A DNA stretch of 62,994 nt, the filler included, from Nemertoderma westbladi (Eukaryota > Animalia > Xenacoelomorpha), in NCBI GenBank assembly GCA_032718475.1. It is 3 parts of 3 records of this genome, joined end to end, with 100 filler letters (N's around TTAATTAATTAA, not from the genome) between each part and the next. Parts side by side here need not be neighbours in the genome. Positions count along the whole stretch, not along the records: positions 1 to 29,532 come from JAUCBJ010000571.1; 2 more parts are not named here. The stretch is one strand, 5' to 3'. The first letter of the stretch is position 1; each line of letters opens with the position of its first letter. Shown here in pieces: positions 6,975-48,157 of the stretch. The notes under the pieces were generated by a model. The model had not been told where the DNA came from. It was given only the letters and a program-made list of their open reading frames with translations, and made no database searches. The translations under genes were made by a program, and so were the position numbers.

Positions 6975-7947
6975 GTAAAGCACGTATTTATTGTCTGCTG
7001 TAGGCCTACCGCGTACAGTAGGACATAGAGTATATTCTTTAGGCTGTTAGGTTAGTGTACTGTTTTACTTACTGTACTGCACACAGTGGATGTACGGTAG
7101 TGCGTTTTTACTTATTGCGAATACAGCAGTTCCTTAGGCCTTAGGGCAAGCTGTAATTAGTAAGTTTTTTGAAAATTTTAGCTAGGTTTGCGAGAATTCA
7201 GTTTCGGTCAAAATTATTGTAAAATCTAGAGTTTTGTACCGGTATGTTGGATAACCGCTTAGTTATTTTATACCATCTGGAGATACATGGCAAGACGGAA
7301 CTTCTGAGTTTGGGGTTCGTGTGGGTCTGCGGGTTCGGTTTGCACTCAGCGAAAGGACTGAAACTTTGGACGCGGACGTGGAATCTCACAGCAAACAAGG
7401 TTAGTTGTTCTGTTGGCACCATTGTGTTTGTGGAAGCAGTAAAAAATTATCGGTTGTTTAACTGCGAAGCTGAACTCAATTTATTAGTTAGGATATTTAG
7501 GTTTAGCCGACCATGGTTTTTTTGAATCGCTCGAGTTAGAGAGAGAGTTAGAGAGAGTCGCAGCCCGAGGATGTAGCCACGCGCTAGTGGATACATATAA
7601 TATTTGAAATAAAATTACGTTGATTAGAGCTATATATGCAAAATTAGAATTATTTGGATGGCAAATTCATTCTGAATATTTTGTATTAGATTCAGAAATT
7701 ATTTTGTGTCATACCGGTATTTAATTGCTATAATAGCTATATAATAATATTTTTGTTTAAATATTGTGCTAGTATTTGCTATAACTATACCCCATTAAAT
7801 TCACAATATTGCATTGCGAATTTATTTTGACATTTTGGACAACTAATTATTTGACAAATAATTTAATCGTATTTCGATTAAATTATATATATATATCTCG
7901 AACCTTTTGCGAGATATTTTTGCCGGAAGGCAAACATTATTTAGACT

Positions 7948-8493
7948 ATGAGTGTCTCAGAGAAGGAGGCACTAGAGGACAGCTATGAGACGGCGGCTGG
8001 ACCGCCGACTGACGATAGCGTCAATATTACTGTTGACGACAATGCCGACTATGACGACGCAGCGAGCGACGCTGACGTAAGTGAACAGGAGGACGAGACA
8101 GTAACTAGTGAGGAAGAACAACAACCTCAGGTAATAGTATTAGGATCCCCTACCGCTACTGTAAGGAAGGATTGCACAGCAACCCGGCCAGAGGTGAGTG
8201 ATAGGGAGGGTAGTGTAGCAGAAGCGAGAGCCCGGAGCCCGGTTTCCAGACCTGTGGGTATGGTAAGTGCCGTGGTCCCAACGGCTGTAAGGAGTACCCG
8301 TAGTTCCCGGAATAATCCTTCAAGTCTACCAAGTGTAAGTCAGGTAAGTGAAAGAGAAATAGATATCGCGATAAAGAAGAAACTTCGCGCGCACGCCGGA
8401 CATATAACTCGAACGACGGACAAGGTAAGGAAGATGCTAGCCGACTCAGCGAACATCGAAAGGGAAGGGTTAGTAGAGATTAGAAGAGGATAC
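7948..8493 (+). pseudogene. N-terminal part of element 1 gag, interrupted by a LINE
   Basis: ATG-initiated acidic ORF. Joining 8493 to 13702 restores the frame (...EIRRGY|NSALFKQTEEL...) into the 13777 ORF. Confidence 0.88.
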
Positions 8494-8678
8494 GACTATT
8501 CCCAATTTGTACACAGGATTGTGGTATTTCTACTTTATACTGTACTGTGCTGTCCTAATGCATACTTAGTACTGCTCGCCTGACTAGTGGACTTTTACTC
8601 AGACCGAGAAACTACCCCGGTAGACAGCTTTATCGATATTTTAATCACTCGCTAATATTCCAAATCTCCCCGTCCGGA

Positions 8679-9593
8679 ATGCCCAACTGGAAGGATGTTG
8701 GTGAGGCAATCCTCCGCCGCCTGGACGACCTACACGCAGGCCAAGATGAGCTGCGGAAGGAAATCAGGGAGCTCCGTGAGCTACAGGATGAGTTTAGATA
8801 CGAACTCAAGGAGGCACGTCAGGCAATCGTAACTAATACTGCTCGTATTTCCAATCTAGAGTCTGATAACGCGATCCTTATTAAGCACAATGAGTCATTT
8901 CAACGAAAGAATACCGCGCTCCTAGTAGAAAATGAGGAGTTGCAGGTCTACCAACGCCGTCACAACATCCTGGTCCACAACCTACCGGAGGAGAACAACT
9001 CCGCCAACGAGAGGGCCAGTCTCATCGCAGATGTTCTTACTCCACTTAAATTGTCGATCAACGACGTTGACGTCTTCCACCGATTAGGAAACGCGGTCCG
9101 CCCTCCGAGCTCGGTTAATGGATCTAAACCTCTTAAACCCCGCGCCCGCACCATGATCATCCGGTTCTACGGACACAGTCAGCGCGTCTGCGCTCTCCAG
9201 AATAAAAAGAATCTCGCTAAGCCGATCGCGATCACTGAACACCTTATTGCGAGTCGTGCGCTGCTTGTTAAATCGCTGCGCGCTCTACATCGCGCGGCAC
9301 GAATCCACTCGTTTTATACCCGCAACGGCGTCGTATTTGCCCGCGTCTGCGATGGCGACAAGCCGATGCGTATCGGGACTGATCGAGATGTAAATTGCCT
9401 CTTCCTTCCACCTCCTGCCAGCTCTGCTCCCGTAGATTCGCTACTCGGGAACCCCTCCACTTCCCCGACTGGGCCCACTGTTCCCTCGACCAACACTCCC
9501 GCTCGTCCCATTGTCCCCACCTCCAATGGTCGGATGCCGGGATCCTACTACTCGCCTATAGCTGTGGTCGAAGAAGAGGAGCCCTCCGAGTAG
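8679..9593 (+). CDS. LINE ORF1 (coiled coil + RRM/CTD, transposase_22-like)
   Basis: Heptad-rich N-terminus, RRHNILVHNLPE, DVFHRLG, MIIRF and ITEHL motifs. Confidence 0.88.
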   Translation: MPNWKDVGEAILRRLDDLHAGQDELRKEIRELRELQDEFRYELKEARQAIVTNTARISNLESDNAILIKHNESFQRKNTALLVENEELQVYQRRHNILVHNLPEENNSANERASLIADVLTPLKLSINDVDVFHRLGNAVRPPSSVNGSKPLKPRARTMIIRFYGHSQRVCALQNKKNLAKPIAITEHLIASRALLVKSLRALHRAARIHSFYTRNGVVFARVCDGDKPMRIGTDRDVNCLFLPPPASSAPVDSLLGNPSTSPTGPTVPSTNTPARPIVPTSNGRMPGSYYSPIAVVEEEEPSE

Positions 9594-10018
9594 TTTCCTA
9601 ATTTTCTCGTACCATTAACAAAGATAAAACTATAAAGCTTCATAAACATTTCAGAATGAAAGAAATTCAAATTATTCGGTGACTGGTAGGGAGCCCATAC
9701 CATTTATTTCAGTTTATTTTATGTAAGTTCCCGGTCAAATTATTCTTATTCATAAACTTTACTAATCATATTTCTTGGTTATATTATTTGGTATATCGAA
9801 TTATTAATACATTTCTTTATATCATCTCATTATAACATTTCCTATCATATTTTCATATCATTTTCTTCTTTAATACCGAACCATTTATCAACTTATGATA
9901 TCCACCAAGTAGATTACCTATTATTAAGGTAATAATGTTTATTACCTACCAATCTGCTGGGGAACCTAATCTAAACACCGAAGTCCTCCTAGTCTAGGCA
10001 AGTCCCTGTACAAATTGC

Positions 10019-13000
10019 ATGTCCGGCCAGCGATACAACCCACCCCCTGACCGTGTTGACTGTAATTGTGGTTTCTGTTTTTCTAAATTTTATCATTTTG
10101 ATCTAGTATTCCTCTGTAACTTATGCAATACGCACTACCATCGACAATGTGGTTCATTCTTAGATGCCCAGGATTTTTCAAATAACTCTGGGAACAATCT
10201 AATACATTTTTGTAATTTTTGTTACGCAGGTATATTTCCTTTTTACCCTGTATCTAATGATGACCTTGATATATTCTGTTCTGAAAATAGCGAGGACATT
10301 TCAGATTCTGATTATAAAGCTACTGGCAACATATTTAGTTCTATTAATCCCGATGATAATGTTAATTCAAACTTAATTATTGGCAACTATTACAATGAAG
10401 CAAAATTTAACAACACTTTCACTAGTGAGACTACCAACCCATCTTTCTCTGTCTTTCATTTAAATTGCAGGAGTCTAAATTCAAATTTTACGGCAGTTAC
10501 AGATTTCTTATCAACGCTCAATAACAAATTCGATATTTTGTCATTTTCCGAAACTTTCCTCACTAAGGACCACCCCATTAACAACATATGCATTGATGGT
10601 TATAAGAACCCTGTATGTGACTTCCGGGAGTATGGTAAGCTGACCAGGGGAGGCACAGCGATCTATGTCCGGAGTGAACTGGAGATGGTCGAACGTCCTG
10701 ATCTACACTTTCCTGGTCCGGAAAACTCCTGGGTAGAAATTTCTCGTCCACATCCGAGTAGACCACTAATTATAGGTTGTATCTATCGTCCCGACGAAAT
10801 ATCTTACGACTCATTTGCTACTAAACTAAATGACTCCTTAACAAAACTGGCAGCTACTAAACATGATGTAATTATTACCGGTGATATAAATATAGACCTC
10901 ATAAAGTCAACCAAACCCAATGCCCGAGACTATCTAAATATAATTTCATCTAACGGTTTTACCCAAACAATACAGCAACCAACCCGTATAACTACTCACT
11001 CTAAGACCCTCATTGACCACGTTATTACTAATATCCATTCATCTATTTGCTCCCCGGGTGTCTTCCTAACTGAAACTGGCACATCCGATCATCTAGCAAC
11101 TTTTCTCGTTCTTTCTAACTATTCTACTTTTTTCCGACCTCCGGAGACCAAATATGTGTATGACTATAGCCAATTCGATAAAACCAAATTTCTGAAAGAC
11201 CTGTACAATAAGCAGTGGACTTACAAAACTTCGACTGTACCAGTTTCTGATAAAGACAAATTCGATAACTTCTACTCAGAATTTACGGCTACTTGTACCA
11301 CAAATCTACCACGCAAGGCACTTAATAAAAAGTCAGTCTCTAAAAAACCGTGGTTATCCAATGGTTTACTATTGGCGATCCGCAAAAAGAACTTACTTTA
11401 CGCAAAGTCCGTCAAACACCCAACCACTGAAAATCACAACATCTTTAAATTATACCGTAACAAGCTAACTAGTCTACTTAGGTCTGCCGAGAAACAATAT
11501 TATACTTCGGAGTTTACAAATAATTCAAATAATATGCGCAAAACCTGGAAAACTATTAATAATCTACTTAACCGATCTAGTAAATCTTCTGTTCCAAAAC
11601 GTTTAAATATATCTAACAACGGTTCTAATTATAGTGTGACTTCCTCATCTGATATAGCTAACCACTTTAACGATTTCTTTTCTACCATAGGACCAAAATT
11701 AGCTTCTAAACTGCCAACCACATCACGCAGCCCGACTCGACATATTCAACATTCTAAATCTAACTCTCTTGTACTCACAGAAACTTCCGCTGTAGAGGTA
11801 CACTACAATTTACTTACTTTACGCGACAGTGCTTCATCCAATGACGATTTCCCTGTACACCTTGTTAAATTAGCCGCACCTATTATAGCAACTCATTTAG
11901 CCTACCTAATTAATCTAAGCATAAATCAAGGCCACTTTCCTAATTCTATTAAGGTATCCAAAGTTATCCCAGTTTATAAAGGTGGCGACCCCTTCCTGAC
12001 TACCAACTATAGGCCCATCTCTTTACTTTCAGTATTTCATAAAATCTATGAATCTGTTATATATTCTCAATTAATATCCTATCTGGAAAAATTTAAAATT
12101 ATTTCCCCTAATCAGTTCGGCTTTCGTAAGAAATACACTACGTCCATGGCTGTTATAAACATTGTAGAGTCATTACGTGAAGCTCTTGATAATTACGATT
12201 CTTCTTGTTTACTACTAATTGATTTGAAAAAGGCGTTCGACACGCTTAATTTTTCTATCCTACTTAGCAAAGTACAAATGTACGGTATCCGTGGCACGCC
12301 CTTTTCACTATTTTCTGATTATCTTACCAACCGTAGGCAGTGCGTATCTATAGATAACACTATATCCTCTCTCAGGTCCATTTCATGTGGTATCCCACAA
12401 GGGTCGGTTCTCGGGCCAGTCCTTTTTCTTCTTTATATAAATGACTTACCTAACTGCACATCCTCCCTCGCGACTCTCTTTGCCGATGACACCACTCTCA
12501 TGCGACGACACCGCCATCTGACTCCTCTAATCGACTCCATGAATTACGACGCTAACCTGCTCTATGACTGGCTATGTGACAACCGACTAACGTTAAATAT
12601 TGATAAGACAGAATACTCCATATTTAAAAACTCCAGATTCCAATCTCAATCTCACGGTCTATCCATTAATAGTCAACCAATAAAATTTACATCTGCATTT
12701 AAGTACCTAGGTATAATTATCGACAATAATTTAACATTCCGCAATCACATAAGCTATATTCTTAAAAAGATCTCTAGAACCGGAGGTCTTTTCTATAAAT
12801 TACGTCATATTCTCAGCCCACAGATTTTACGGATGCTCTTTTACTCGTTAATATATCCATACATCTACTATGGTCTCATTGTCTGGGGTGGCACCTACAA
12901 TACCATCACCAAACCTTTGCGAACAAAACTAAATAAAATTCTACGATGTATTACGTTTAGCCACCACCGGTCCTCCGCCTTTCCAATCTACCAACAACTA

Positions 13001-13306
13001 CGTATACTACCTATAGATCAACTTTTCCAATTCCAGGTCCTCTCACTAATGTACGATATTCATAGTAACCCCTCCCACCCTCTTTCCCACTTGTTCACCA
13101 GGGCTTCTTCAGTGCACTCCTACAACACCCGCTCTGCCTCCGCTGGTCTGTACCACCTGCCACATGTCCGTCTTATTGTCCGTCACCAGTCTGTATCTGT
13201 TCAAGGCCCTTTACTCTGGAACTCCTTGCCACAAAATATCCGTAGCAGCTCCAGTCTGAATATCTTTAAATTAAAACTTAAGAATTACTTGCTCAAAATC
13301 TCTTAA
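10019..13306 (+). CDS. LINE ORF2: PHD finger, AP endonuclease, reverse transcriptase (1095 aa, uninterrupted)
   Basis: N-terminal Cys/His cluster; HLNCRS, SET, GDINID, LIDH and SDH endonuclease motifs; NYRPISLL, QFGFR, DLKKAFD, GIPQGSVLGP and FADD RT motifs. Confidence 0.96.
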   Translation: MSGQRYNPPPDRVDCNCGFCFSKFYHFDLVFLCNLCNTHYHRQCGSFLDAQDFSNNSGNNLIHFCNFCYAGIFPFYPVSNDDLDIFCSENSEDISDSDYKATGNIFSSINPDDNVNSNLIIGNYYNEAKFNNTFTSETTNPSFSVFHLNCRSLNSNFTAVTDFLSTLNNKFDILSFSETFLTKDHPINNICIDGYKNPVCDFREYGKLTRGGTAIYVRSELEMVERPDLHFPGPENSWVEISRPHPSRPLIIGCIYRPDEISYDSFATKLNDSLTKLAATKHDVIITGDINIDLIKSTKPNARDYLNIISSNGFTQTIQQPTRITTHSKTLIDHVITNIHSSICSPGVFLTETGTSDHLATFLVLSNYSTFFRPPETKYVYDYSQFDKTKFLKDLYNKQWTYKTSTVPVSDKDKFDNFYSEFTATCTTNLPRKALNKKSVSKKPWLSNGLLLAIRKKNLLYAKSVKHPTTENHNIFKLYRNKLTSLLRSAEKQYYTSEFTNNSNNMRKTWKTINNLLNRSSKSSVPKRLNISNNGSNYSVTSSSDIANHFNDFFSTIGPKLASKLPTTSRSPTRHIQHSKSNSLVLTETSAVEVHYNLLTLRDSASSNDDFPVHLVKLAAPIIATHLAYLINLSINQGHFPNSIKVSKVIPVYKGGDPFLTTNYRPISLLSVFHKIYESVIYSQLISYLEKFKIISPNQFGFRKKYTTSMAVINIVESLREALDNYDSSCLLLIDLKKAFDTLNFSILLSKVQMYGIRGTPFSLFSDYLTNRRQCVSIDNTISSLRSISCGIPQGSVLGPVLFLLYINDLPNCTSSLATLFADDTTLMRRHRHLTPLIDSMNYDANLLYDWLCDNRLTLNIDKTEYSIFKNSRFQSQSHGLSINSQPIKFTSAFKYLGIIIDNNLTFRNHISYILKKISRTGGLFYKLRHILSPQILRMLFYSLIYPYIYYGLIVWGGTYNTITKPLRTKLNKILRCITFSHHRSSAFPIYQQLRILPIDQLFQFQVLSLMYDIHSNPSHPLSHLFTRASSVHSYNTRSASAGLYHLPHVRLIVRHQSVSVQGPLLWNSLPQNIRSSSSLNIFKLKLKNYLLKIS

Positions 13307-21457: not shown

Positions 21458-22155
21458 TGTTGGACGCAACTCACTTTGTATGCATTCCTCGTATGCAAAT
21501 ACTAGGAAATGCATAGGAGCGGGGTTGTGGTGATTTGCGTTGAGAATTTGTCTGGTGGGTATCAAAACAAAAATTTTATTTTCAAAATTTTTGGAAAATT
21601 AAAAATTAAAAAAATTAGAGTGAACCCAAGACAATTCCAAACGTTGTGTATAGACGCGTTTGAATTCGTCTATAGATAAACAGTAATTTGAAAGGTCGTG
21701 AAGCCTGGAAAATAGCATTTAGAAACCATGGTGACGGCTATATTATGTAGGAGTGTAAATTGAGTTTTGCAACTTCCACAGATTGGTGCCAACAGTACAA
21801 CTAGGGTGCTAAAGGTTAGTAGCACCAGGGCGTACACAGAACCCACTCAGTAGTTTGCAGTGAAGTGTGATGTTCGATTATCAAACCTGTGGGTTTGGTA
21901 TAATCGAGCCTTTCTAACTACTGTAGTTTTAGTACGAGTAATGGGAGTAGTTTGGGCATCAAAAAGTGAGTTGGTCACGGCCAGTTTATCTCCAAAGTTT
22001 TTGCGCTATGCATGGGAATAGGTTAGAGGATAGTTAGGAATGAGACGGGATCTAGAGAGTCGAACCTGAACTGCTGGAAGGCGGGGGGGGGGGGGGGAGC
22101 TCAGGAGGTCTGTCCTTCGACGGCATCTAACTGATTTACCCACCGTGTAATTGGT

Positions 22156-22680
22156 TTGCGTAACGAACTATTGGGATATATGTATTTGCGGCACAATGAA
22201 CCGCTACCTGCCGTCCGAGATCAATTCGACGGGATGCATCTTTACTGGAGGACTCGAGGCGAGGACGAGGCGACGCCAAAGGGTTTCAACGTATACAAGT
22301 CGTTCTATAAATGCGGTGAATGCATGAACAAACAAGACGTGGCGATTCCCGACCGACTGGACGAGCAACATCCTGAACCGATATTAACGCGATGTCAAGC
22401 TCACCAGTTCCTTAGATACAACGAGGGAGGTTACCCAATGAGCAACCCGATGATCGGTATCGACTTCAGCGGAAAGCGACCTCCGAGACCCATTACGCCG
22501 ACCGTTACGACTTTAGATCCGTATACGGAGATTAAACCCTGTTCGACACCCAGTTTGATAGAGACGACGGCGGCCATTTCGCTATACCGAGCCTACAAGG
22601 ACCTAGAGGCGCGGCGCGAAGCGATTTATACGATATTTACTCCAAATTATTTCAGGAAGTTTCAACGAACGCGTTATTAA
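22156..22680 (+). CDS. Unknown ORF between pol and the 3' LTR of element 1
   Basis: 174-codon open frame in a GC-richer patch, with CGEC and CQAH motifs. No family recognised. Confidence 0.4.
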   Translation: MRNELLGYMYLRHNEPLPAVRDQFDGMHLYWRTRGEDEATPKGFNVYKSFYKCGECMNKQDVAIPDRLDEQHPEPILTRCQAHQFLRYNEGGYPMSNPMIGIDFSGKRPPRPITPTVTTLDPYTEIKPCSTPSLIETTAAISLYRAYKDLEARREAIYTIFTPNYFRKFQRTRY

Positions 22681-24018: not shown

Positions 24019-26186
24019 TGTTACGGTATATGGCGCTGTATATACATTATTAGCCGATGTACTGTGCGCATTATTAGCCATTATGCAGTGCGCATTATTA
24101 GCCATTATGCAGTATACATTATTAGCTATTATGCAGTACACATTATTAGCCGTTCTACTGTACACAATATTAGTCATTATGCAGTATAATTATTTAGATA
24201 AGGCATGATAATGCGTGATGACATTTAGATAAGGAAAATAAAACGCCCATATATTTTGAATTCATTCATTTTGTATAGTATGTAGTCCTACCTATGTAAT
24301 TTTGTAATAGGATAGTTCCAGGGTAGCAAGTTTCTTGTTGGACCCTGGATATAAGCTTGCTGTTATTAGCCTCGATAGGGCTAGCATCCAGGAACGCAAT
24401 CCTAACCATTCAGCAGCCAGGGACATGATCCATTACCATATATGGTAATAATTTGCGATTTGGAAGCCCTGAGGTTCACAATCCGGCTTCCTTATTGGCC
24501 CAGCTGTTCCAGGTTGGTCTGATGGTGGGGCGGATTGGGGAACCAATGAGAGGAATATTGCGTCATCCCTGTTGCATCACCTATAAATTGGCTGTATTTC
24601 CGGTATGTGCATCTAGTTATCTTAATCTTAATCTCTAATTCTAGTTTTCTAGTTCTCAGTTGTTACAGCAGTATTAGTGGCAGTATTGTAGTTTTGTTTC
24701 TGGTTAATTGTTAATCTTTCGTCTATCTTTCTGTATTTCTCACTCAATTACTGCAAATTACAACTTTGAATTATGGTTTCTACTTCGATTATTAATTCCT
24801 GTGTGATTTAAGATGTGATAATCCCACGGGATTTCTTTAGACTGTCAGACTTTGCGATTTGCATGCGCCGCTACGGTAGCTATTCATCTTGATGGAGGGC
24901 TAAGGTACCGGTAGGCGGTGGGCGCATCGGGGGGTTAGCGACGAAGGGAGTAGCGGAGAATTCAAAGGCGGGCAACGCTGGCGGGGGGTCACCGTTGCGG
25001 TCGGGCAATTTGCATTGTGGCGTGCGGACAGCTCGCTGGTACAGTAATTAGGGGGCTGATGATCCAGATTTTGTCTCTATTTTGTAGTATTAGGGGGGCA
25101 GGAATTGGGTTAGTTAGGAAGCCTAGATGTACCCGGGAGAGGCCTGCGTGCTTTACAATTGCGAATTGCATGCATTGCGAATTATTATATTGTGCTGTGT
25201 AATTGCGAATTGCGTGCATTGCGAATTATATAATTGCGGATTGTACAATTGCGAATCGCGCATTGCGAGCTGTGATTGCTGACGCTGATTGGTGTGTTAC
25301 TGAAGTGTGCCTAAGATTACGAATGCTTAGATAGGCGCTCTTTTCTCTTTGATTGATTTCTATTTCTTAGTTTACTGTAAATAATTACTGATTAGGTCAA
25401 AGTAATACAGTATTTTAGGCTGTTACTAGTGAAACCCGTTGTGTAATAAATTAGAATTACGCATTCTGGAACTCTTAGTAATTAGTACGCTGTTACGTAT
25501 TTGTGACTGTAATTAATTAGTAAAATTAAGAATTAGTACGCAGCATAGCGGAGAGTAGCTAAGGTAATAATTAGAGTACCGTAAACTATTCACGCTGGGC
25601 GGTTATTTGAATTAGCGGGCAATAAGCTAGATTGCAGTATTCAGTACGCAAAACGCATTAGTAATTTGCTGGCCTAAAGCCAGCCGTGTAGGCAAGTTTA
25701 GTCCCACTATAGGTATTAGCCCTAATAAACACTGTACCGATTTTGATTATTTTAAATATTCTCACATTCACACATTCCGTTAGGGAAACCCAGTCTTTGC
25801 GATTAGAAGGAACGCATTTACCAGACTTTACAGTAAGATTAGGCCGTAAGAATATACTCTGAGTGTAGAGCCTCTCACACTCGTCTTAAGTCAGCTTAGG
25901 GAGTCAATTCGGGTTTGTTGTTTTGGTTATTCCCGCGTGGCTCATATATTCGAACAGTTAGCTCTCTAACGAGTAATTGGTAGAGAAAGGAACAAGAAAT
26001 TAGCAGGAGCCGTAGAAAATTAGTAAAACATATTAGCAGACGGCAGATTAGCGCCATCTAACGGCAATTAGCAGTTTTGTATTTAGCACCCCCTCACATT
26101 AGCAATAATACGCTCCTGATTGCCCTGTCTAATAAATAGAGCAGTTTTGTGTCTTTATTGGTTAGGCCGGGGTAGTTTGTTTAACA
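24019..26186 (+). repeat. 3' LTR of element 1 (2168 bp)
   Basis: Direct repeat of 4835-6974, followed by the AGTAG TSD. Confidence 0.97.
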
Positions 26187-26946
26187 AGTAGTAATTTAAA
26201 AATGAAAAATGTCTTTCCGAGAAAATGCCCTTCAAAGTTTAAACCGTCCCGCCAAAATTGGCTGTCTGCGTTCTGGTTGGTTAATTATTTCCGGCATGAA
26301 GGATGCACAGCAACGAGCTAAAATGTTCATTACGGGGGTTTTCGGGGTCGCTGATTTCATTTCCGATGTCAGTTTTAATTTTTGGTGGAATCTTGTCTGT
26401 CCGTCTGTCTGTCGGTCTTCTGTCTTTCTTACAATTTGACGGACAGACCGTCATATGGAAAAACAGTGATAACTCGAGAACTGAAAGAGGTCTCACTAAG
26501 CGGTTTTCAGATTTGTAATCCTCATTAAATTCTACACTAGATTAAATAAAGAAGCTGTAAAAGCTTCTGTGGGATATAACTGGCCCCTTTTTGCTTCGCA
26601 ATCCAGTTTCCCCCCAGGCGCTGGAATACTCTAAAAAGGTTCTCTAACTGTATATATATTCCCCTCGCCCGCAAGGTACCGTTACAGGTGTTTTAACGGA
26701 CATAAAAGTCATTCTGCTATATACGTGTTTTGGCGGACATGGTAAGGCAAAAAACCTGTAATGCACCAACTACCTTTCACAGCTTAGCCGTGATGATTCA
26801 TATTACGACATCTAACAGCTGGTTGCTGACATGGAAACAGCCATTGGACGCATAGTTCTTTGTTTGGCTTGAGCCAATCAGAGCGATTTTTCCTGTCGAC
26901 GTGTAGCTTTTCAGCCGATCATAAGGAGAGTGTTCAGTCTTACTGC

Positions 26947-27891
26947 CTTACTTGATACTTTGTTGTTATTGCTGTCTAAGCCAGAAACACCGGCCTTTTG
27001 GGAAGAACTCTAGTAAACTGCTTAGATTATAGAAAGTATAACTGTTACCGGCGGTGTTACCTCACTTAATTTAACTGCACTAATCATATTGTTTGTACTG
27101 CTATTTACCGTCAGTTATTAATTGTATCTATTTGTTGATGGAAATATTGCTCTTTGGAGAATACGGATAAATCACCCAAAATTCCCAATTTTCTTGATAC
27201 ACTACAGGTTAGAGAGGCGGGCTATATATAACAATTGCGATTTATATCAATGTGGTGTGTATTGAATCTAATGTTATTTAGTAGACACTACCTGAGTCAA
27301 TTGCTGTTCTCTTTATGTGTGATCAAATATACTGACGGTCGGCAGAATAGTGTGCATGATTGTGAGTGTGATGTGACTGGTAACAAAGCATTTCCTAAAG
27401 AATGCGACTTATACTTTAATCATAAGCCTTATCGTTGCGTTTAGTATAAGTCCTAGCTCTGTTTAAATAGATAGAGCGCCACGTCCTAAAGGAACTGTTA
27501 ATATTTCCCGAAAGTTAATAATATCTGTCAGAAATTAATTATTAGTGATCTATCGAATAATACAATAGGTTTACACTGCAACCTTACACTGCAATAATAA
27601 AATCTAAGCATCCGAATTCAGCCTCCCGGGTGTAGATCCATCGGGTGAATGATCGCGCATGGGCTGGCTTCGGCTAATGTTTTGTTTATTAGCATAAAAT
27701 ATTGTCGTATGCTAAAGGTGTGTTAATTAACTAAAAGACATATAAATTTTGGCAGGTTAAACTGCTAAAGGTCTTCAAAAGCGCGAACAGTAACAGTTAT
27801 ACTTTCTATAATCTAAGCAGTTTACTAGAGTTCTTCCCAAAAGGCCGGTGTTTCTGGCTTAGACAGCAATAACAACAAAGTATCGAGTAAG
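26947..27891. repeat. 102-bp inverted repeat (26947-27048 / 27790-27891)
   Basis: The arms are reverse complements with a single G-U-compatible mismatch. Confidence 0.97.
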
Positions 27892-27944
27892 TTAAAGTAA
27901 CCAAGTAACCCTAAAATATTCAGAAATTCAATTATTCTAAAATA

Positions 27945-28200
27945 ATTGACATACCGGTATTTACCATAGGCTTATTATATTTATTTCTATAAATTTGTGC
28001 TGAAATCATACCGGTACTCTGTAATTAATTATAGTCCAGAATTATACTTATATACTATAAGTGTAGGCTGTATACCGGTATTCACGATAGGCCTATTATA
28101 TATTTATATATATTTGTGCTAAAATTATATACCGGTACTCTGTGACAAATCTAGTCTGTAATAATACTTATATATATATTATAAGCATACCGGTATTCTA
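27945..28200 (+). repeat. ~60-bp-period repeat with an ATACCGGTA core (5 copies) in the element 2 leader
   Basis: ATACCGGTA at about 27951, 28008, 28072, 28129 and 28187. Confidence 0.75.
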
Positions 28201-28332
28201 ATATATTATATATATATCACGCTACACTGAGTAGCAGTATCGGTAATTAATTATTAGGCTAACAGTGATACTGAATTACTAGACTTGCTTTAACTGTAAT
28301 ATAGCAGTAGGCATTCAACTGTACAATCAAAC

Positions 28333-29532
28333 ATGGCTGACACAAGGCAAACTCTGTCAGATAGTCTCCTAGAAACAACAGCCTGTTTCTCAGATCAAAG
28401 TGTAGAGAATCCCAGACCGAGGTCTGAAACCCCTCATACTGTAAGAAGGGCAACCCCTGCAGTGGTTGTGACAGAACCTAGGTTGGTAGAAAAGATTTCG
28501 CAATTTGCGAAGTTAGTGAAGCGCCGTTGGTCTGCCATAGGCACTCGGGCCCAAGTCAAGCGGGATCAAGAAGAAGCTATAAAACAGCAGCAACCTCCTA
28601 GCCAAGAACCTGGTTCTCAGCGGCCCGATAGCTCCAGTAGTTCGGATACTGTTGAGCGGACGCCAGAACGCGGAGCGAAGATGGCGGATACGGTTTATGA
28701 TGGGCGGCCAGCCTGTGGGGAATCAACCGACGCCACTTCTTCTCAAGTGGAAAGTGAGGTGGAAAGCGAAGTGAAAAGTGAGGTGGAAAGCGAAGTGGAA
28801 AGCGAGGTGGAAAGCGAAGTGGAAAGCGAATTAACATCAGCAGAGAAGCCGCGAACTAGAGACGCTATCGACATTTATTTGTCCGACTATCAGCGATTCC
28901 TAGGAGACGAAGAGTTGAGGAGACGGCTGTCTGGACTTTCCCCTAATAGTGAAGGAACCAAGCTTGTGTTGGACGCAATCGATGCCGAAATGTTAGCTGC
29001 AAACCAAGCTGAATGTGATGAAAAACTCCGCCTCATTAGAGTCCGAGAAGAACAAATAAAGAAAAGAAGGATAGAGGAACAAAAGGCGGCGGCTATGGCA
29101 GATGCAGAAGCAGAAAGAAAAGCAGCAAAGGCGGCGGCTATGGCAGAAGTAGAAGCAGAAAGAATAGCAGCAAGGGCAGCAGCGGCAGAAGCAGAAGCAA
29201 AAGGAAGGGCAGCAGCGGCAGAAGCAGAAGCAAAAGGAAAGGCAGCGGCGGCAGAAGCAAAGGCGGAAAGGGCAGTGGCCGAAGCAGAACGGAGAGCCTC
29301 TGAGCAGACTATCCAATTGGAGTTGGAAAATCTGCAAGAGACGCAAGACAGTATAAATAAACAGTTTACTGCTAATCAAATGCAGATGATGAGTCGATCT
29401 ACTCCCAAGCGCCAAGGATACACATCATCGGAGGAAGGCGAGACCACCGATCCTGAAGGCGGAGGAAATAGATCTCGTCTAAGCAGGCGTAGAAAAACAT
29501 CTCACCGTCATAAACTGCCTGATTTGCCCCCC
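28333..29532 (+). CDS. Probable gag N-terminus of element 2 (partial)
   Basis: 400 open codons with ESEV and AAAEA repeats and a coiled coil. Its position after the LTR and leader mirrors element 1. Ends at the gap. Confidence 0.65.
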
Positions 29533-29632: not shown

Positions 29633-30239
29633 AGTATACATTTTAATCAAACTGATATATTGACGACAGTTTTGTACATATATGTACAGATACAGTACTT
29701 TTTGTGAATAAACGCGTGGAAATAGCCATTGAATATATTTGTTGCCATAGCGAAATGCACCTTACGTATCTATAACTGCAAACAAATTTGAATAGTGGGG
29801 GAATGGGGATGGTGACTATATAAACCCAAATCCCATCTCGGCGAAATAATATTTCACCCCTCAAATTGATTGTCAATTAAGACCGAAAGGATGAAGCAGA
29901 TCACATGGAGTGCATAAGCGTGCGGCTACGTGGGGGGGAGGGGATTCGCCCCCCTTTGCCAATTCCCACCACACCCTACAAAAAAAAGTATTTCAAAAAT
30001 TGTAAAATTTGCGGACTGTGCAGTGTCGCGAGGGGGCCACCAATAATATTAACTTACTCAAAATATTTATATACTGTATTTAGTGCAATTTCGATCACTT
30101 TAATTATCATTTAGCTGGTTTATTTTATTGTTAGTAAATGATAATTTATGTTAGTATCGTGATAATTTAACAGTGGTGTTTAAGTTACGGCCAAGGACTC
30201 CTTGGTAAGGAGTAGGATAAACCAGGGGGGTAAAATGTA

Positions 30240-31133
30240 CACCATAACCCGTAATACAACAACCATTTTTAGGGGGTCGGAGCCCCCCCCCCCATAATTT
30301 TATTCAAATTTCAATAAAATGCTACGAAATTTGGTATGATGATGATGATAGATCGATACCTTTTCTTACTGGTGGCCTGGCCGGATTTTTTAATTTATGA
30401 GCTATTTCGATACAACAAGCCGTTAAAAATCGTCTATTTCGCAATATTTAGCCACCTCCGTCAGCTTTATTTTTCGTCTTTGGAATGATATCTAGATATC
30501 ATTAGAACCGCCTTCATCTGCAGATTCCGAATATGAAACCCGTTGTAAATTTCACCAAGAACTTCCGGAGATATTATCAAAATACTAAGGTGTAAATTTT
30601 GTGACGTAAATCGCTATAATTCTAATGTTTTATTTACTCAATTCTAGAATATTAATTATGGATAATGAAAAAACAAGATGGAGAGTTTTAAACGCTCAGC
30701 TAAATAATAATTAATATTCTAGAATAAAGACAACAAAACATCAGAATTATAGCGATTTACGTTCTAAATTTACACATTAGTATTTTGATAATATCTTTAC
30801 CAATTTGTGGTTAAATTTAAAACGGTTTTCAGATTCGGAATCTACAGACGAAGGCGCTTCGAATGATATCTAGATTACATTTCAAAGACGTAAAATAAAG
30901 TCTACGGAGGTGGTTAAACATTGCTAAATAGACATTTTTTAAGGGATTGTTGTATGGAAATAACTGAGAAATTGAAAAAACCGGTCAGGCCACCAGTAAG
31001 AAAAGGTGTCGATCTATCATCATACCGAATTTCGTAGCATTTTATTGAAATTTGAAAAAAATTAGGGGGGGAGGGGGGGGGGGGGGGGGGCTCCGACCCC
31101 CTAAAAATGGTTGTTGTATTAAGGGTTATGGTG
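30240..31133. mobile_element. Palindromic MITE (Tc1/mariner-type TA TSD)
   Basis: TA|CACCATAACCC...GGGTTATGGTG|TA. Arms of roughly 420 bp pair over nearly the whole element. Confidence 0.88.
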
Positions 31134-33019
31134 TATGTTGATTATATAATTTTATGTGTAGGCCTAGTGTATATGTTGATATGTCTATAAAATAAGAGAC
31201 AAACTAGTAACTAGGCCTATAATACAGTGTAAAAATAAATATAATAAGCCCCTATACCGATAAGTAGGGAAATTAGTTTACATTAATTGCATATAAAATT
31301 ATTTAAAAATTAAATATCGTGTCATATAAATGATTGTGCTGGGGATAAGTACGGTAGCTGAAATATATACACTGAAACTCATACATATACTAACTCGTTG
31401 CATGCACGTACTGTTGTGTAGTAGTTAGGCAATGTCAACCATGCCAACCTGACGATGCATACATGACCTTGGCATTCCTTCTGTATTCTGGTGTCACTGA
31501 TGTAGTTACTTACAACTAACTCTAGTATACAGTATGATTGCAGGATTACTGTGCCAAGTTTACTGTAAGTTGCCTATGCCCGATCAGCCTATACCATATA
31601 CCGTACAGTACTTATTAAAAGTGTTTTATCTGGGCTCTGGGCAATCAATGATTCAACAACATTGGGGTAAATCAATATGGAAGAATTGAGGGGAAAGACG
31701 GACTTGAGTGATGATGAAACTCAGAAATTATATGAACAAATATTACTTCAGGTTAGCTTCGAGCTGTAGAGCGTAGAGATTTGTGTGTTTCATACATAGT
31801 ACCGGTCCGGCATTGTCCGGTACTGATGTTTGAGTTGGATACTTCTGTCAGTCTGTATCTGTACCGGTACTTCCGGCAGTCCGGTGCGATAGGCATTAGG
31901 TACACTAAACAGTCACACCTCGATTCCTTGAGTCGCCGTTCGGAAATTCTCAACTACAGGTCAGCAGGTACCGGTACTGCTGTACTGGACTTCAGGACTT
32001 TCTGACTTTGGAGACTGACACCGCCTGCGTCTGACCATAGCCAGTCTGCCAGTAGCGGCAGGCTAGGCTGCGAGTATCAGCTGATTACACACACAGACAC
32101 ACAGTTACAGGCTGACAGGAATATATTAGATAGGAAAGCCGGCATTTAGTAACTGTAGTAGTCTGTTCTGTTCTGCTGTTAGCAGGTTAGTGCAGTTAGC
32201 TGGTTAGTACTGTAGTATAGTACTACAGCTGTACAGTAAACAGGTAAAGTAAACATAGGCCTGACTAGGCCTAAGCAGGTACCGTAAACTGGGGTTACTT
32301 TGCCCGGTGGGGTTACTTTGCCCAAACTTTTCACTTCTCATTTAACTATTATTTTTAGAAAAAAATATTGTTAATGTGGCGGCTATTAAGGTCATATTAT
32401 AAAGGTGAATTACTGGTGAAGAGAATGATATGAAAATGCAGTATGGTTTCATTTATATAATCAATGTAATATTATTTTGATGAAATTACACTAAAAAAAT
32501 CCATCAAAATCTATGTCCCAAACTTTACCTTGCAAAAGTGAAAAGTATTTCTGCATTTTAACAATAACTATATTATTAGTTTGATTCTACATTTATTCAT
32601 GCAAAATTTGAGCGGTTATACATACAAGTAATATTGCAAGTTAAATATTTATGGGAATTTTTGCCAGCTTGGACCATTTCTTAAAATATGGGGGCTACTT
32701 TGCCCAGCTTTTTTTTCACTTGGCACTTATTTTTCTGCCTATTTCGCTATGTTATTTAACAATTCTACCAGCACATTTACCTTATATATATTATCCCAGC
32801 AAATATTTGTAATTTACGGAGTGGGGCATGCCATTGTCAGATTGTCTATAATGGACTTAAGAATAAAAATCGTTAAAAATTATCTAAATCGGTGTGGAAG
32901 GGTTGTGGATAAGTTTACGAACAATCAGCCAGGCAAAGATTGGGCTGTTTATTGAACGTCAGAAAAACCAATTGTCATTGCCGTCGGTCATGAGGAAATA
33001 ATTGCTTACTTCGAACATC

Positions 33020-33288: not shown

Positions 33289-33319
<31 letters not shown>

Positions 33320-34230
33320 TGATCGGCATGCTGCATTGCAGCTGCATTTTTAAGAATGCTGTGCCGGCTTGTCAACAAAATTGCACCGCCACAACTCCCT
33401 ATCACCCATGACATTTGCTAGATCATCCGCATCTTTAAGGCCAGTGTCCTTTAAGATGCGTCTCAAGAAAGTCATGGGCTGTCCACCATGCTTATTTACT
33501 CCATGAGGCTGCCAAAGTACAAGATTATGCACTGGCTGGTCCTCACGGCGAAAGCAATGTCCTGCAAAGCGGAGGCGATTTTGTTCTAGTGTCAAGCTTG
33601 GGGGAACCAATGAGACACCTCCAATGTTATATAGTGTCTGGTTGGAGATGTGTGCATTGTACTTGACACAATGAACCCGGCGTAGCATTCTTGTGAATGT
33701 GCCATCCAGAGATTTGGTGTCCTCAGCAGTTAGAGCCCAGCATGGACTCCCGTAGAGGAGTACTGGAACTACTGCTGCTCTAAATAATCGGACCTTAAGT
33801 TTCCGATTAATTCTCGGTGACTTCCAAATCCTGGAAAGCCTATTCAAGGCTGCCCATGCCTTTCCCTTACGTATTCGAAGGTCCTCACCTGACTTCCGAT
33901 GCTCGAACTACCAGTGGTTGGTTTGATGAAATAGCATTTGAAGAGTGGTTTATGACTATTTGCTTGCCCTGGGCAAAACATCTTGAAGGGAAAAAGGTGG
34001 CCATTGGTGATAACCTTAGTTCACACATTAGTGAAGGGGTAATAGATCAATGTTCTCGCAATAACATTTCGTTTGTCTTCCTTCAAGCAGTATTTCACTT
34101 GAGAAACAATCCTTCCCACGTCTCCTAAATCAACTAATAATCAAGCTCAATGAGAATGGCAGAATGGGGCAGCATCCACAAACATTAAAGCTGGATTTCG
34201 AGCAGCTGGTATAGCACCATTTGATCCTAC
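33020..34230 (+). pseudogene. pogo-like DDE transposase, disrupted
   Basis: NYHETNF, GSADG..QPIYVVYK, SGWFD, IGDNLSSH and IKAGFRAAGIAPFDP motifs. Carries an RTE insertion and deletions. Confidence 0.88.
33294..33898 (-). mobile_element. 5'-truncated RTE-clade LINE
   Basis: RT C-terminus (LKVRLFRAAVVPVLLYG, RLRFAGHCFR), a (TAG)n tail and a 13-bp TSD ATGCTCGAACTAC (33281-33293, 33899-33911). Confidence 0.93.
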
Positions 34231-41218: not shown

Positions 41219-42097
41219 TTACGTGCTATAAACCCGAACTAATTCGCTAATCTCCTTCCTACATATGGGGCAGTAATCCTTCCTATTAACCAACTGTTTG
41301 CCGCACTGCATACAGCAGCACATGTGATGGCAAGGAGCGAACAAACAATCCTTCCGACGGTCCATGCAGATCGCGCAGTCTATATCGCGAGGACTCTGAG
41401 TGGGGAGGTCCTGTATGGGGTTGAGGTTGCCTCGGTGGGAGAGGAACGGGAGAGAATCTCCGGAGAAACTGATCGCGGTCCGTCGCATACGGAGTTGCTC
41501 GCGTCTCGCTATCTTCCTACTCTCAACCTGCTCCTCCGAGAGAATCAGAGGTTGCCGTCCCGATCGCATAAACAATGTTTTACCCATCGCCTGTAACAGA
41601 TCGCGGGCCGCGTCAAGGGTTTGTGTGGACGTACTCCGGGACATACTCACCTCTACTTCCGGTATGTTGTAAACCGGATGCAGCCAGCGGAGTCCGATAA
41701 AACGGTGGACGTTGACAGCAACGGCGGAGGACAATGAGTTCATATCCATAGATATTGTGTTAGTCGCTAAGATACAATCCGAAGTGCACATCGATGAAAC
41801 AGAGAAGAACAAATCCTTTTTAATCGCCTCGTTCTCGACTATAGCTTCGAATACGAATTCCGCATCTTTCACAACTTCCTGCAGTTCTCCTATACATAGA
41901 ACTGTTCCCAGGAAGTTATCAGTCAGCATTAAACCTTCCGATATTAGCTCGGATTTGTCCCGTTCCAGATTCTCGCGTACAGCTGCCAGAGCTCCGGGGT
42001 TTTTGTCCCAAACTTTAACGCTGTGTCCATGGGATGCGAGTTCCCCAGCTATCTTAACTCCCATTAGGCCACATCCGATAACCGCTATACGAACCAT
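41219..42097 (-). CDS. 3-hydroxyacyl-CoA dehydrogenase-like NAD-binding domain fused to a C3HC4 RING finger
   Basis: VIGCGLMG, VWD, FEAIVENEAIKKDLF, LATNT and MGK motifs; C-terminal CAIC...PCHHMCCCMQC...CPICR. Confidence 0.92.
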   Translation of the reverse strand: MVRIAVIGCGLMGVKIAGELASHGHSVKVWDKNPGALAAVRENLERDKSELISEGLMLTDNFLGTVLCIGELQEVVKDAEFVFEAIVENEAIKKDLFFSVSSMCTSDCILATNTISMDMNSLSSAVAVNVHRFIGLRWLHPVYNIPEVEVSMSRSTSTQTLDAARDLLQAMGKTLFMRSGRQPLILSEEQVESRKIARREQLRMRRTAISFSGDSLPFLSHRGNLNPIQDLPTQSPRDIDCAICMDRRKDCLFAPCHHMCCCMQCGKQLVNRKDYCPICRKEISELVRVYST

Positions 42098-42356
42098 TTG
42101 GTTAGGCAGAGGCGTTAGCCGGTAGGCCTATATTTTTACGGTAGGCCTATACGATTCGTTACCGCTGTACCGTTACAAAACTAAAGTAAACAAGCATTCA
42201 CATTCATTATCTATGAATGTAACATAATGCAAGTAACATTAATGCGAAAACACTTATAATGTACAACAACAACTGATGTAGGGAAAACTGTTAGATCTTT
42301 TAAAACCCATTCATGCAACCAGATGATAATAAATATTAAACTTTAACTGAACCGTG

Positions 42357-43440: not shown

Positions 43441-44112
43441 AGGATGATAAAGATTACAGGCGCTCAAAGGATGGTATGCTTGAGCATGTGGACGACTTCT
43501 GTTACCTGGGATCATGGATCCGGAAGTCAGGTGAGGACCTTCGAATACGTAAGGGAAAGGCATGGGCAGCCTTGAATAGGCTTTCCAGGATTTGGAAGTC
43601 ACCGAGAATTACTCGGAAACTTAAGGTCCGATTATTTAGAGCAGCAGTAGTTCCAGTACTCCTCTACGGGAGTCCATGCTGGGCTCTAACTGCTGAGGAC
43701 ACCAAATCTCTGGATGGCACATTCACAAGAATGCTACGCCGGGTTCATTGTGTCAAGTACAATGCACACATCTCCAACCAGACACTATATAACATTGGAG
43801 GTGTCTCATTGGTTCCCCCAAGCTTGACACTAGAACAAAATCGCCTCCGCTTTGCAGGACATTGCTTTCGCCGTGAGGACCAGCCAGTGCATAATCTTGT
43901 ACTTTGGCAGCCTCATGGAGTGAATAAGCATGGTGGACAGCCCATGACTTTCTTGAGACGCATCTTAAAGGACACTGGCCTTAAAGATGCGGATGATCTA
44001 GCAAATGTCATGGTTGATAGGGAGTTGTGGCGGTGCAATTTTTGTTGGCAAGCCAGCACAGCATTCTTAAAAATGCAGCTGCAATGCAGCATGCCGATCC
44101 TAGTAGTAGTAG
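43441..44112 (+). mobile_element. 5'-truncated RTE-clade LINE (second copy)
   Basis: Near-identical to 33294-33898, with FCYLGS, a (TAG)n tail and TSD TATAATA (43434-43440, 44113-44119). Confidence 0.92.
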
Positions 44113-44713
44113 TATAATATCTCGTCGACCTCTCTCATTATTGCCAATCCTGATGCGATTCCGGCAATTTTTCGGCCACTAAACCATGAACCAATATAAT
44201 GTATTCCTAACTCTCATCTATTGTTTTGGTTCCTTTCAAATCGCCTCTGTAACCTGCTCCTTTACGGTGGTGAGGTTATATTCAGCCACCATAGATTTGC
44301 GTCCAGCCCCCCCCCCCCCCCCCCCCTGTCCCGTCATCTTAGGTTCGCCCCTATTACTGTTTTTTACATGAGTTATGAAAGTTTCAAGCCGAAAAATGTA
44401 TTTATTTATTTATCACTAAATACTGGCAGAACAGCTTTTTGTGTAATTCTACCTGGTACATAAGAAACAAACCAAATATTGATTGTTTTAAACCGGTAAT
44501 TTTTGAATTATTTGCTAAAAACTATTGGCAAAAAACTATTAACATAATAATTATTTGGAATACAGTAGATATCATTACAGTAATAAAACTATAAAGTTGA
44601 TCTTGTTGCAGCATTTAGCAGCGACAATAATGTTTCATAATAGAATGTGAAGTTACACTGTGCAATTCCTTTCACCTGAATGAAGAAATACAGGCCAAAT
44701 AATAGCAGAATGA

Positions 44714-47700
44714 CACAGTGGGGCTGATATACGTTTTATAAAATAAAAATGCCCAAACTAACTGATTTCATTTTTTGGTATACTTCAACACCCTGGTTCC
44801 GACCCTGACATTTTTAAAATCTTTTGCTGGTGTCTTTTTCTTAAAATTACTAAATAAATTAGTAATAATAATAATAAATAATAACACCAAATTTATATAG
44901 CGCACTATCTATAAATAAATAGGTCTAATGCGCATTTACACGTACATTACATAATATTAGTTCGGAAAAGCCTTAAGAAAATAATGTGAATTAAGCATAG
45001 TTTTGAAAGAAGCTAGACTGCTCGCTATCCTGATTTCCAATGGTAGGTCATTAAAGATTCTCGGTGCAGCCGCCGAAAAAGTGTTTAAATGCGCCAAATG
45101 TTTTATAGTTGGTTGATGGTACAGTACTACCAAAGTTGAGTTATACTGCGATCGTGTCACTTTGGAGTTAATTTGAATTAATTCAGCCAAGTAATCAGGA
45201 GCAACTCCATTTAAACACTTCCAAGTTATTAATGCAATCTTATACCTGATTCTGAAAGATGTTGGCAACCAATGAAGGTCTTTGAGTAGAGGTGGCACAT
45301 GAGAACGCCTATTAACACAATTTACAACACGTGCGCAATGATTAATCACACTTTGAAATCTTTGTTGTAGATAATCCGGAATACCAACTAATAGAGAGTT
45401 ACAGTAGTCCATTCTCGATAGTATTAATGACGTCATCAGCTTCACAGTTTGCTCCCTACTTAAATATCTTCTTATCCTCGATATATTCCTTAAATGATAA
45501 TTGGATACCTTTACAATAGACGAAATGTGTCTTTCCATGTTCATTTTGTCATCAAGTATGAATCCTAAAGATTTGAAATGAGATACTGAAGTCACATTTT
45601 TCTCACCAAAAATAAGAGTTACAGGTTCAATATCAGCAATTGCAAAGCGATTACGAATTATCATAAGCTCGGTTTTGTCACTATTTAACATAAGGTTCAC
45701 AGACACCATCCAATTATCTAGTATATTTATCATATTCACTATCTCATTATTGATAATATCTAGATCTTCAAGAGCAAAGATGAAGTACAGCTGTGTATCA
45801 TCAGCATAAATCTGAAAGTTTAAGTTCATGTCCATGCAAAGTTGAGCAAGCGGCAGAGTATATAAGTACAATAACGGTCCCAAAATCGAGCCTTGCGGGA
45901 CGCCAGAATCAAGTTTCACCACACGAGATCGAACTCCTTTGATCATTACCCAAAAAGATCTCTCACTAAGATAACTCTTTAGCCAATTTAGTACCGTCCC
46001 TTTAATTCCTATATCCATGAGGCAAGTAATGAGTTGATTATAATCTACTGTATCGAATGCTGCCGATTGATCCAATAGTAATAAGGCAACTAGCTTTTTG
46101 TTATCCAATGCACCCATGATATCATTATGAATACGTGTCAGCATAGTTTCAGTTGAAAAATGTTTTCGATACCCTGATAAGAACTTTGAAAGAACACGAT
46201 TTTTCGCCATATGTAACTGTAACTGAAAAGCTACTTCTTTTTCACATATTTTTGAAACATATTCAAGGTTAGAAACAGGTCTGTAGTAGTTATTAACATT
46301 TGGATGCAAATTTCGCTTCTTAATGAGAGGGCTAGTCACAACAGTTTTTACTTTGTCTGGGACGCAACCAGTTGTTAGAGAGACATTGATATACCTTGTA
46401 ATAATAGGTCTTATTACACTTATAACTGGTTCTGAACGCAACAATGATGCTGGGATGGGGTCAATCAGCGAATAGGTCGTTTTTAGTTCATTAATTATTT
46501 TAGTAACTCGATCTTCTGTGATCGTATCAAATGTAGTCCACTCTTTATCACCAACATTGATGCTGACTGAGCGAAATAATCTGCAACAGCATTGGAATCC
46601 CTTTTTAATTGAATCTTTTCCTTTATTTTATCAACTTTTTCTTTAAAGAAACTTGCAAACTCCTCACAGAGATCTACCGAGTTTTCATGTTCTGGTAAAA
46701 TCACCTCAAACCTTTTACCGCACAGTTTTGAAACAGCAGAACATAACCTTTTATTATCTGAGCAATCAGAAATTAATCTAGACACACAGCTGTCAATTTT
46801 TCGTATAGAAAAATCTATTCATTCGACCGGAATAGACCAATAATGTCGTCCCGGCAACTTGCAAATATATCATTTCCGTCACCATCTACATCATCCTGTA
46901 TATCATCGCCATTATAGTCCGACATAAAGTCGGCAAAATAATTAGTATTTACGAGTTAGCGGCGTTCTGATGCAAATTTACATTACCGCAGTCTAGCAGT
47001 TTGAATTGCTGTATTGTTGCTTAAGTTCATTACGTTAATTACGTCAATACTATTTATAATAATGCTATATATATTATAAAAAATGCCCAGACCAAATTAT
47101 AGCATTTATCGAGAATTTAAATCAACCTGATTTTGAATCTGTTAATTTTATAATATTTCGTCGGTGTCTTTTAGAGTAATTAAATAAATTAAATATTAAA
47201 TAATATTAATATTATATTAGCAAACCGGCTAATATAATCAATTGTAGTGAAGTCAACTTACCGTACCGTACTGCTATTGCATTGATATTAGTATCATTCA
47301 AACCGCAATGGTCGATTTAGTGGGGGTAGACACCATCAAAACAATGGTCGAGTTATTGCTTCTCGAGATATCGGTCAAAATGTGAGCGCGATTCATATAA
47401 ATGAGCACATAACTTCAGCATTTCAATATCAATATATCACAATATCACAAAAAATATCAATTTTTTTATACTACTATTGTTTTGATGGAGTCTACGACTA
47501 CTAAATCGACCATTGCGGTTCAAATTTAAGCATATTCCCTAAGTCTGTTATTTAAGTCTGATTTTTAGTGATATGGTGATATATTGCATTAACTAGCTTA
47601 CCTAGTGTAATTTAGATTAAGTCAGCGCTCACATTTTGACCGATATCTCGAGAAGTAATACCTCTACCGTTGTTTTGATGATGTCAACACCCACTAAATC

Positions 47701-48157
47701 GACCATTGAGGTTCGAATGATACTAATATCATTGCAATAGGAGTAAGATAAGTTGATATTCACTACAATTGAGTATTAGGCAGTTCTGCTATATAATATT
47801 AATAAATTTAATATTATTTTAGAATATTATTACTCTAAAAGACTAAAGATACTAGAAACTATAGAGAACCTATAGAGAAACTAAAGAGACTAGAAATATT
47901 ATAAAATTAACAGATTCGGAACCGGATTAAAAGTCTCGAAAAATGCTATAATTTGGTCTGGACATTTTTTATAATATATATAGCATTATTATAAATAGTA
48001 TTTATTACTAATTTATTTAGTAATTTTAAGAAAAAGACACCGGCAAAATATTTTGAAAATATCATTTTTGGAATCAGGGCGTTGAAGTGCCCCTAGAAAT
48101 GAAATCAGTTTGGCCGGGCATTTTTCTTATATAAAAAGTTGGTTCAGCCCCACTGTG
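44714..48157. mobile_element. Non-autonomous foldback DNA transposon with CACAGTG termini (Transib/Chapaev-like), interrupted by an L2 LINE
   Basis: CACAGTGGGGCTGA...TCAGCCCCACTGTG. 44714-44865 pairs with ~48003-48157, and ~47047-47520 pairs with ~47560-48002. Flanks are ATGA/ACGA. Confidence 0.85.
44863..46790 (-). pseudogene. 5'-truncated L2-like LINE (RT)
   Basis: YRPVSNL, DQSAAFDTVD, GVPQGSILGP, YADD, LHWLP and FSAAAPRIFNDLP motifs; (TTA)n tail near 44863-44883; frameshift near 46500. Confidence 0.9.

Follow-up and report, generated by a model that had tools for sequence, protein, structure and literature searches.

Self-priming of reverse transcription has been described for the Tf1/sushi elements (accessible portions of PMC6317226 and PMC3601003), which are Ty3/gypsy chromoviruses. 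In Tf1, the RNA pairs through its first 11 bases with the primer-binding site (PBS); RNase H cleaves between bases 11 and 12 (PMC7175516, accessible portion). A pretzel fold has been reported for this element (bioRxiv 10.1101/2022.12.06.519325, accessible portion), and in about half of its cDNA the PBS/primer persists as a single-stranded copy (PMC11042837, accessible portion). The initial annotation of the locus studied here attributed self-priming to Tf1/sushi elements, but this account was incomplete, as self-priming is also predicted for the TAR lineage of Ty1/copia (Houba, Osr-1) and for Tcn1 (PMC6317226). The criterion used in that work, as given in its accessible portion, is that at least 10 nt of the LTR are complementary to a site 0-5 nt past the 5' LTR. 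The same portion also records half-tRNA primers without TGG in Copia.

The Belpaoviridae, by comparison, are described by the ICTV as tRNA-primed, with an 18-nt PBS for tRNA-Arg or tRNA-Gly, and the same account calls BEL/Pao replication poorly understood (PMC8742986). Our literature searches, which lay outside subscription journals, Repbase, GyDB, and supplements, found no paper describing BEL/Pao elements as self-primed or splice-primed. Within their accessible text, PMC3118150 lacks the terms primer, PBS, tRNA, and intron, PMC554778 lacks PBS and tRNA, PMC5408687 lacks PBS and self-priming, and PMC8220671 mentions the PBS generically only.

The window (the whole stretch of 62,994 nucleotides from Nemertoderma westbladi, assembly GCA_032718475.1, that was analysed) holds two LTR retrotransposons, elements 1 and 2, the latter in two copies (A and B), whose features given below are all on the plus strand. 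As the window consists of three pieces joined by N spacers, and the piece holding copy A of element 2 stops at 29532, sequence past this position is not part of that copy. The reading that we favor, with a probability of about 0.72, is that element 2 is a high-copy, probably BEL/Pao retrotransposon likely primed by a fragment of its own RNA, and that a 102-nt inverted arm in copy A is likely a one-off over-copy of this primer.

The near-perfect inverted copy singled out by the initial annotation is indeed present. Arm 1 (26947-27048) and arm 2 (27790-27891) are 102 nt each and 99% complementary, with a spacing of 741 nt; their sole mismatch is T26953 against G27885 (a G-U pair in RNA), and pairing ends on either side of the 102-nt duplex. 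Arm 1 would correspond to a long self-primer, at its minimum length, with its 3' end at 27048 and its last 10-15 nt pairing with the ordinary PBS of the family, and arm 2, its antisense, would be the one-off over-copy. As had been noted, an initiator-like TCAGT (26934-26938) lies ahead of arm 1, with CCAAT/ATTGG boxes upstream by motif reading. From such motifs, the transcription start zone is predicted at 26936-26952, either at the A of TCAGT (26936) or ~30 nt past a weak TATA-like word at 26920, around which a TATA scan found no box with one mismatch or fewer; this promoter prediction is weak. Taken by itself, the 102-nt arm would set a lower bound on the length of the primer and put the predicted start near 26947-26952, not far from the initiator-like word. 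Since a predicted poly(A) signal (AATAAA, 27596-27601) lies downstream of the primer end, an R region would be left for strand transfer. No tRNA gene was found in the window, nor any Rfam match at 26400-28400.

Six public runs carry the copy A stretch or part of it, four of which (X1, X3, X4, and X5) were examined as contigs. The element 2 family is variable and very abundant, with 23,663 records matched in X1. Two X5 contigs enter copy A at 26556 from a purine-rich tract ending like the tract before the 3' LTR of element 1, so that element 2 has the polypurine tract before the 3' LTR expected of LTR retrotransposons, and two X4 contigs enter at the same position from other sequence. At 27789/27790, five contigs in X3 and 3+2 in X4 exit into long flanks that are mutually unlike and without arm 2. 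Together, these entries and exits into unlike flanks delimit the 5' LTR of copy A (TG...CA, 1234 nt) as 26556-27789; the similarity between copies A and B also begins with TG (26556/58049) and has the same 3' end. The TG...CA terminal repeats of element 2 thus also occur as 3' or solo copies with other flanks, confirming the expectations of the initial annotation that the LTR ends at 27789 and that 3'/solo LTRs lack the second arm. An LTR extending past 27891 is ruled out by the same exits.

The LTR of copy B (58049-59260) is 89% similar to that of copy A over 846 shared columns and has a different U3 middle. A comparison of 26556-26985 with 58049-58440 shows that the two LTRs agree over their first ~95 nt and again from ~26986 onward, with unlike U3 middles, which likely reflects promoter swapping between subfamilies. 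The core PBS of copy A (27790-27804) lies directly 3' of the LTR end and lacks TGG; it is complementary to the LTR of element 2 itself, as had been proposed, pairs over 10-15 nt with 27034-27048, and abuts the LTR end, as in the Tf1/sushi elements. In copy B, the PBS (59261-59275; 0/60 shuffles) forms 14 Watson-Crick pairs and one G-U pair with the primer site at 58491-58505. This primer site is one A longer than that of copy A and the PBS one T longer, showing that the two sites co-vary. Pairing in copy B stops after the 15 nt of the PBS, and its contig ends 6 nt later. The LTR is not followed by TGG in either copy or in any of the junction contigs listed, and the PBS of element 2, like that of element 1, lacks the complementarity to a tRNA-Arg or tRNA-Gly 3' end that the ICTV describes.

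Among the junction contigs listed, exits from copy A at 27798-27801 number 11+3 in X1, 2+3 in X3, 1 in X4, and 1+1+2 in X5, most of which run on into the motif that follows the copy B PBS. Every listed junction contig of the four runs, like copy B, keeps only ~9-15 nt of the long arm. Therefore, as sister copies diverge after ~9-15 nt, the long arm is not the normal PBS of the family. In all four runs, the pairing of arm-1 contigs ends exactly at 27790, although the sequence past the primer end varies. The read depth beyond 27801 is explicable by arm-1 contigs on the opposite strand, and high depth resumes from ~27902, where the sequence is back to the family leader. In one X5 contig, the six-letter word just past the post-PBS motif is the same as the last six letters of arm 2; on this single contig, the word could possibly have been the landing site of an over-copy jump.

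In the mechanism that we propose, transcription would begin near 26936-26952, the leader would fold to bring the bases up to 27048 into pairing with the PBS, and the RNA would be cut after 27048, by RNase H if the analogy with Tf1 holds. This cut would yield a primer of ~100 nt, paired only through its 3' 10-15 nt, which would remain attached and be copied during plus-strand strong-stop synthesis. A normal cycle would keep the paired 10-15 nt only, so that the PBS and the LTR site stay matched. On the line leading to copy A, the entire 102-nt copy would have been fixed, displacing the normal post-PBS leader and rejoining the family leader by ~27902. In many relatives, described below, the paired site would be formed only once an LTR intron has been spliced out, element 2 representing an intron-less form.

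The short PBS might be used for self-priming while the 102-nt arm arose from a DNA-level template switch extending a 15-nt inverted repeat, or from assembly, so that it would not record the primer length. We regard this as unlikely, even though the 102-nt arm is known from one assembled copy only and none of the pieces listed (four runs; X5 complete) bridges from 27789 to beyond 27801. The start site is, moreover, a prediction, and a perfect TATA in one relative (L018) would give a primer of just 16 nt. Nevertheless, arm 2 begins exactly at the LTR end, the arm ends within ~11 nt of the predicted start, and the sequence is back in the family leader at ~27902, for which two switches would be needed; the one mismatch between the arms speaks against a fresh assembly echo.

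The initial annotation had instead taken the 102-nt duplex for the working PBS of an active subfamily, recopied in every cycle. The near-perfect arms agree with this model, and so does the predicted pairing probability of the site, which is 1.00 in copy A (0.70 when copy A is cut to 15 nt; the low values in copy B, 0.35, and in the 5' LTR of element 1, 0.00, speak against the reading that we favor; no pretzel fold is shared among the predicted folds). The depth at 27801-27820 could, in addition, conceal long-arm copies beneath the arm-1 contigs. However, the divergence of copy B and of all the listed junction contigs in four runs after 9-15 nt does not bear out a renewal of the long arm in each cycle, and no relative carries a long arm at its PBS, making this model highly improbable in our view. 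Most likely, the 102-nt arm is accidental in origin but would still record the 3' end and the minimum length of the primer.

The assignment of element 2 to BEL/Pao is likely, based on the polypurine tract end, the LTR end, and the PBS start that it has in common with element 1. The AACA/GTAA junction of element 2 is the same as that of element 1, whose ends are set by its target duplication, and both putative primers end in TTAC, two likenesses that the initial annotation had pointed out. The gag-like ORF of element 2 (28336-29532) is of low complexity and coiled-coil-like, and is cut by the contig end at ...HKLPDLPP, an end similar to the beginning of the DUF1759 region in the relatives; the truncation falls where an LP...F.G capsid motif starts in 31 of 50 long relatives. 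This ORF matched no Pfam family and no real homologue, representatives gave repeat-driven matches only, and its match to one BEL/Pao gag is weak and composition-driven. The contig stops at 29532, short of the pol and the 3' end. In one scan of metagenome contigs at the DNA level, a 21-nt LTR pattern found no other copy of element 2.

Element 1 is a complete BEL/Pao element (4835-26186), with 2.1-kb LTRs that are 97.5% alike and a 5-nt target duplication (AGTAG). Its DUF1759, Peptidase_A17, integrase, and DUF5641 domains and its reverse transcriptase (RT) matches place it in BEL/Pao, on a long branch whose position inside the group is unsure. Directly after its 5' LTR (4835-6974) lies a 10-nt PBS without TGG (6975-6984), which matches the 3' LTR (24019-26186) perfectly over 10 nt (25147-25156) at offset 0 and the 5' LTR with one mismatch (5971-5980). 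Shuffled sequences did as well in 1/60 cases against the 3' LTR and in 8/60 against the 5' LTR, and taken alone this self-match is modest. The pol of element 1 is interrupted by stops near 18703 and 19078, and its long 3' region contains an unassigned 181-codon ORF (22135-22680). A LINE lies in the same orientation within the element (8559-13306; ORF1-like 8559-9593, endonuclease-RT ORF 9998-13306), with an ORF at 7945-8583 on one side and the main gag-pol ORF on the other. At 25366-25375, ~220 nt downstream from where the contiguous primer site lies, the LTR has a strong splice-acceptor-like site followed by TTTAC, the last five primer bases; a good donor was not found, and the site is possibly a relic of a spliced form. 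A spliced primer was tested for elements 1 and 2 and was not supported.

To recover relatives, the polyprotein of element 1 was aligned with 29 homologues, and the best 80 of 229 metagenome-contig loci were retained; viral contigs searched with the pol alignment contained no relative. In 13 hand-picked loci, the 3' end of the LTR was set by a direct repeat and unlike flanks (the LTR starts of L018 and L046 were placed by eye). The PBS matches a predicted GT-AG exon-exon junction in the element's own LTR in 11 of these 13 loci, over 10-15 nt and with 0/300 shuffled PBSs in each case. These 11 loci represent about nine families, with predicted introns of 67-186 nt, GTAAG or GTACG donors, and pyrimidine-rich acceptors. 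PBS/LTR pairs taken across families match over 8 nt at most, except for L009, L014, and L036, which have a common junction. Of the two remaining loci, L059 has a contiguous match of 11 nt to its own LTR (0/200 shuffles), and L049 has no self-match and the only TGG site of the 13. The splice-junction pattern was first spotted by eye, and the choice of donor patterns and of the offset rule came after the sequences had been inspected; the contiguous-match test was non-significant for most relatives, the signal coming with the splice junctions.

A blind scan of 89 non-coding segments from the 80 loci retrieved matches in 15 loci, against 1/445 shuffled segments; single weak matches (L006, L003, L044, L017, L068, and L077) were left out of the counts. 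A contiguous site of 11-13 nt was found in 5 of 29 further segments, against 4/580 shuffles, with an offset of at most 6 and an AC/AT rule that were fixed after viewing two of the five matches; the other 24 segments had no contiguous site, many of them probably without a whole LTR and PBS. In every match, the PBS lies 0-6 nt from the LTR end. All 12 self-matching loci whose ends are defined, and 15/15 blind matches, have putative primers that terminate in AC or AT, a possible cleavage signature, and exon 2 supplies 5-7 nt of the primer in the spliced forms. Folding of five elements gave the site a predicted pairing of 0.63-0.97 when the leader was spliced and of 0-0.03 when it was not (5/5). 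The predicted primer lengths are 16-194 nt in relatives, L059 having a perfect TATA and an initiator that give a predicted primer of 103 nt, and about 540 nt or more in element 1.

A quickly built RT tree of 101 rows, with SH-aLRT as its only support measure and rows with short RT matches omitted, recovered an 85-row group with a support of 91 that takes in all 22 spliced-labelled rows, L059, and element 1, and leaves L049 outside; the label tests on this tree did not differ from chance (500/500 shuffles were as low). L059, an intron-less form, is nested among spliced forms in this tree, a state likely due to intron loss.

The pairing between PBS and LTR could also be structural, acting in packaging, masking, or splicing control, with priming left to a host RNA, for example a tRNA fragment. 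The tRNA priming of Belpaoviridae according to the ICTV (PMC8742986) and the half-tRNA primers without TGG in Copia (PMC6317226, accessible portion) lend some plausibility to this explanation, to which we nevertheless give little credence: the PBS varies by family yet follows each family's own LTR, it stays within 0-6 nt of the LTR end in every match, and the only TGG element with defined ends (L049) is without a self-match. Finally, the idea that a MITE occupies 26947-27891 with the arms as its terminal inverted repeats, which would account for two arms flanking 741 non-coding bases, is excluded by the lack of a target duplication at the arm ends and by a unit that is not bounded by the arms, its interior extending upstream to 26556 in both copies and stopping at 27789 in 3'/solo LTRs.

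Self-priming from the element's own RNA remains our preferred reading for element 2, which would work like Tf1, though not necessarily as a member of the Tf1/sushi group. As in Tf1 and Tf2 of Schizosaccharomyces pombe, the PBS adjoins the 5' LTR and is complementary to the element's own leader; in those elements, the match is ~11 nt, no tRNA is involved, and a primer copy is found on the cDNA (accessible portions of the Tf1 literature cited above). In contrast to the Tf1/sushi elements, where the primer is the first ~11 nt of the RNA, the 102-nt arm would imply a longer primer, the paired site of element 2 would be the 3' end of a ~100-nt leader, the site of the relatives spans a predicted splice junction, and element 1 and the relatives are BEL/Pao rather than Ty3/gypsy chromoviruses. 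The TAR Ty1/copia elements and Tcn1 are alike in the self-match criterion and differ in superfamily and host, and the accessible portion of PMC6317226 mentions no long or spliced primer for them. Compared with the ICTV Belpaoviridae, the LTRs, polypurine tract, and gag-pol are alike, whereas TGG is lacking at the LTR end in elements 1 and 2 and in 12 of the 13 relatives with defined ends.

More broadly, we lean, at slightly better than even odds, towards a scenario in which a large marine branch of BEL/Pao dropped tRNA priming and uses a ~100-nt primer cut from the 5' end of its own RNA, often after host splicing of an LTR intron. The arm of copy A would then be a reverse-transcribed fossil of the whole primer, marking where transcription begins as well as where the RNA is cut.

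The rest of the window contains other repeats and host genes. Two inverted, 5'-truncated LINE 3' ends (33306-33898 and 43521-44114) are 99% identical and carry TAG-repeat tails, and foldback or MITE-like elements, some of them nested, occur at 2289-4362, 30238-31135, 44714-48157, and 54789-55301. NOB1, PIH1, Sin3, and CTU1, host genes whose ORFs are long and unbroken, lie within 36284-57866, together with an ORF on the minus strand (41219-42127) that combines the NAD domain of a 3-hydroxyacyl-CoA dehydrogenase with a RING finger.

If the proposed mechanism is true, self-priming would reach into a third superfamily of LTR elements, and its primer would be freed from within a long leader. The over-copied arm yields base-exact predictions, namely an RNA 5' end at or before 26947-26952 and a break after 27048. 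Self-priming would also explain the missing tRNA sites in such elements and give a rule for locating their LTR ends. In the relatives, the primer would depend on splicing, so that the choice of genome would be tied to RNA processing.
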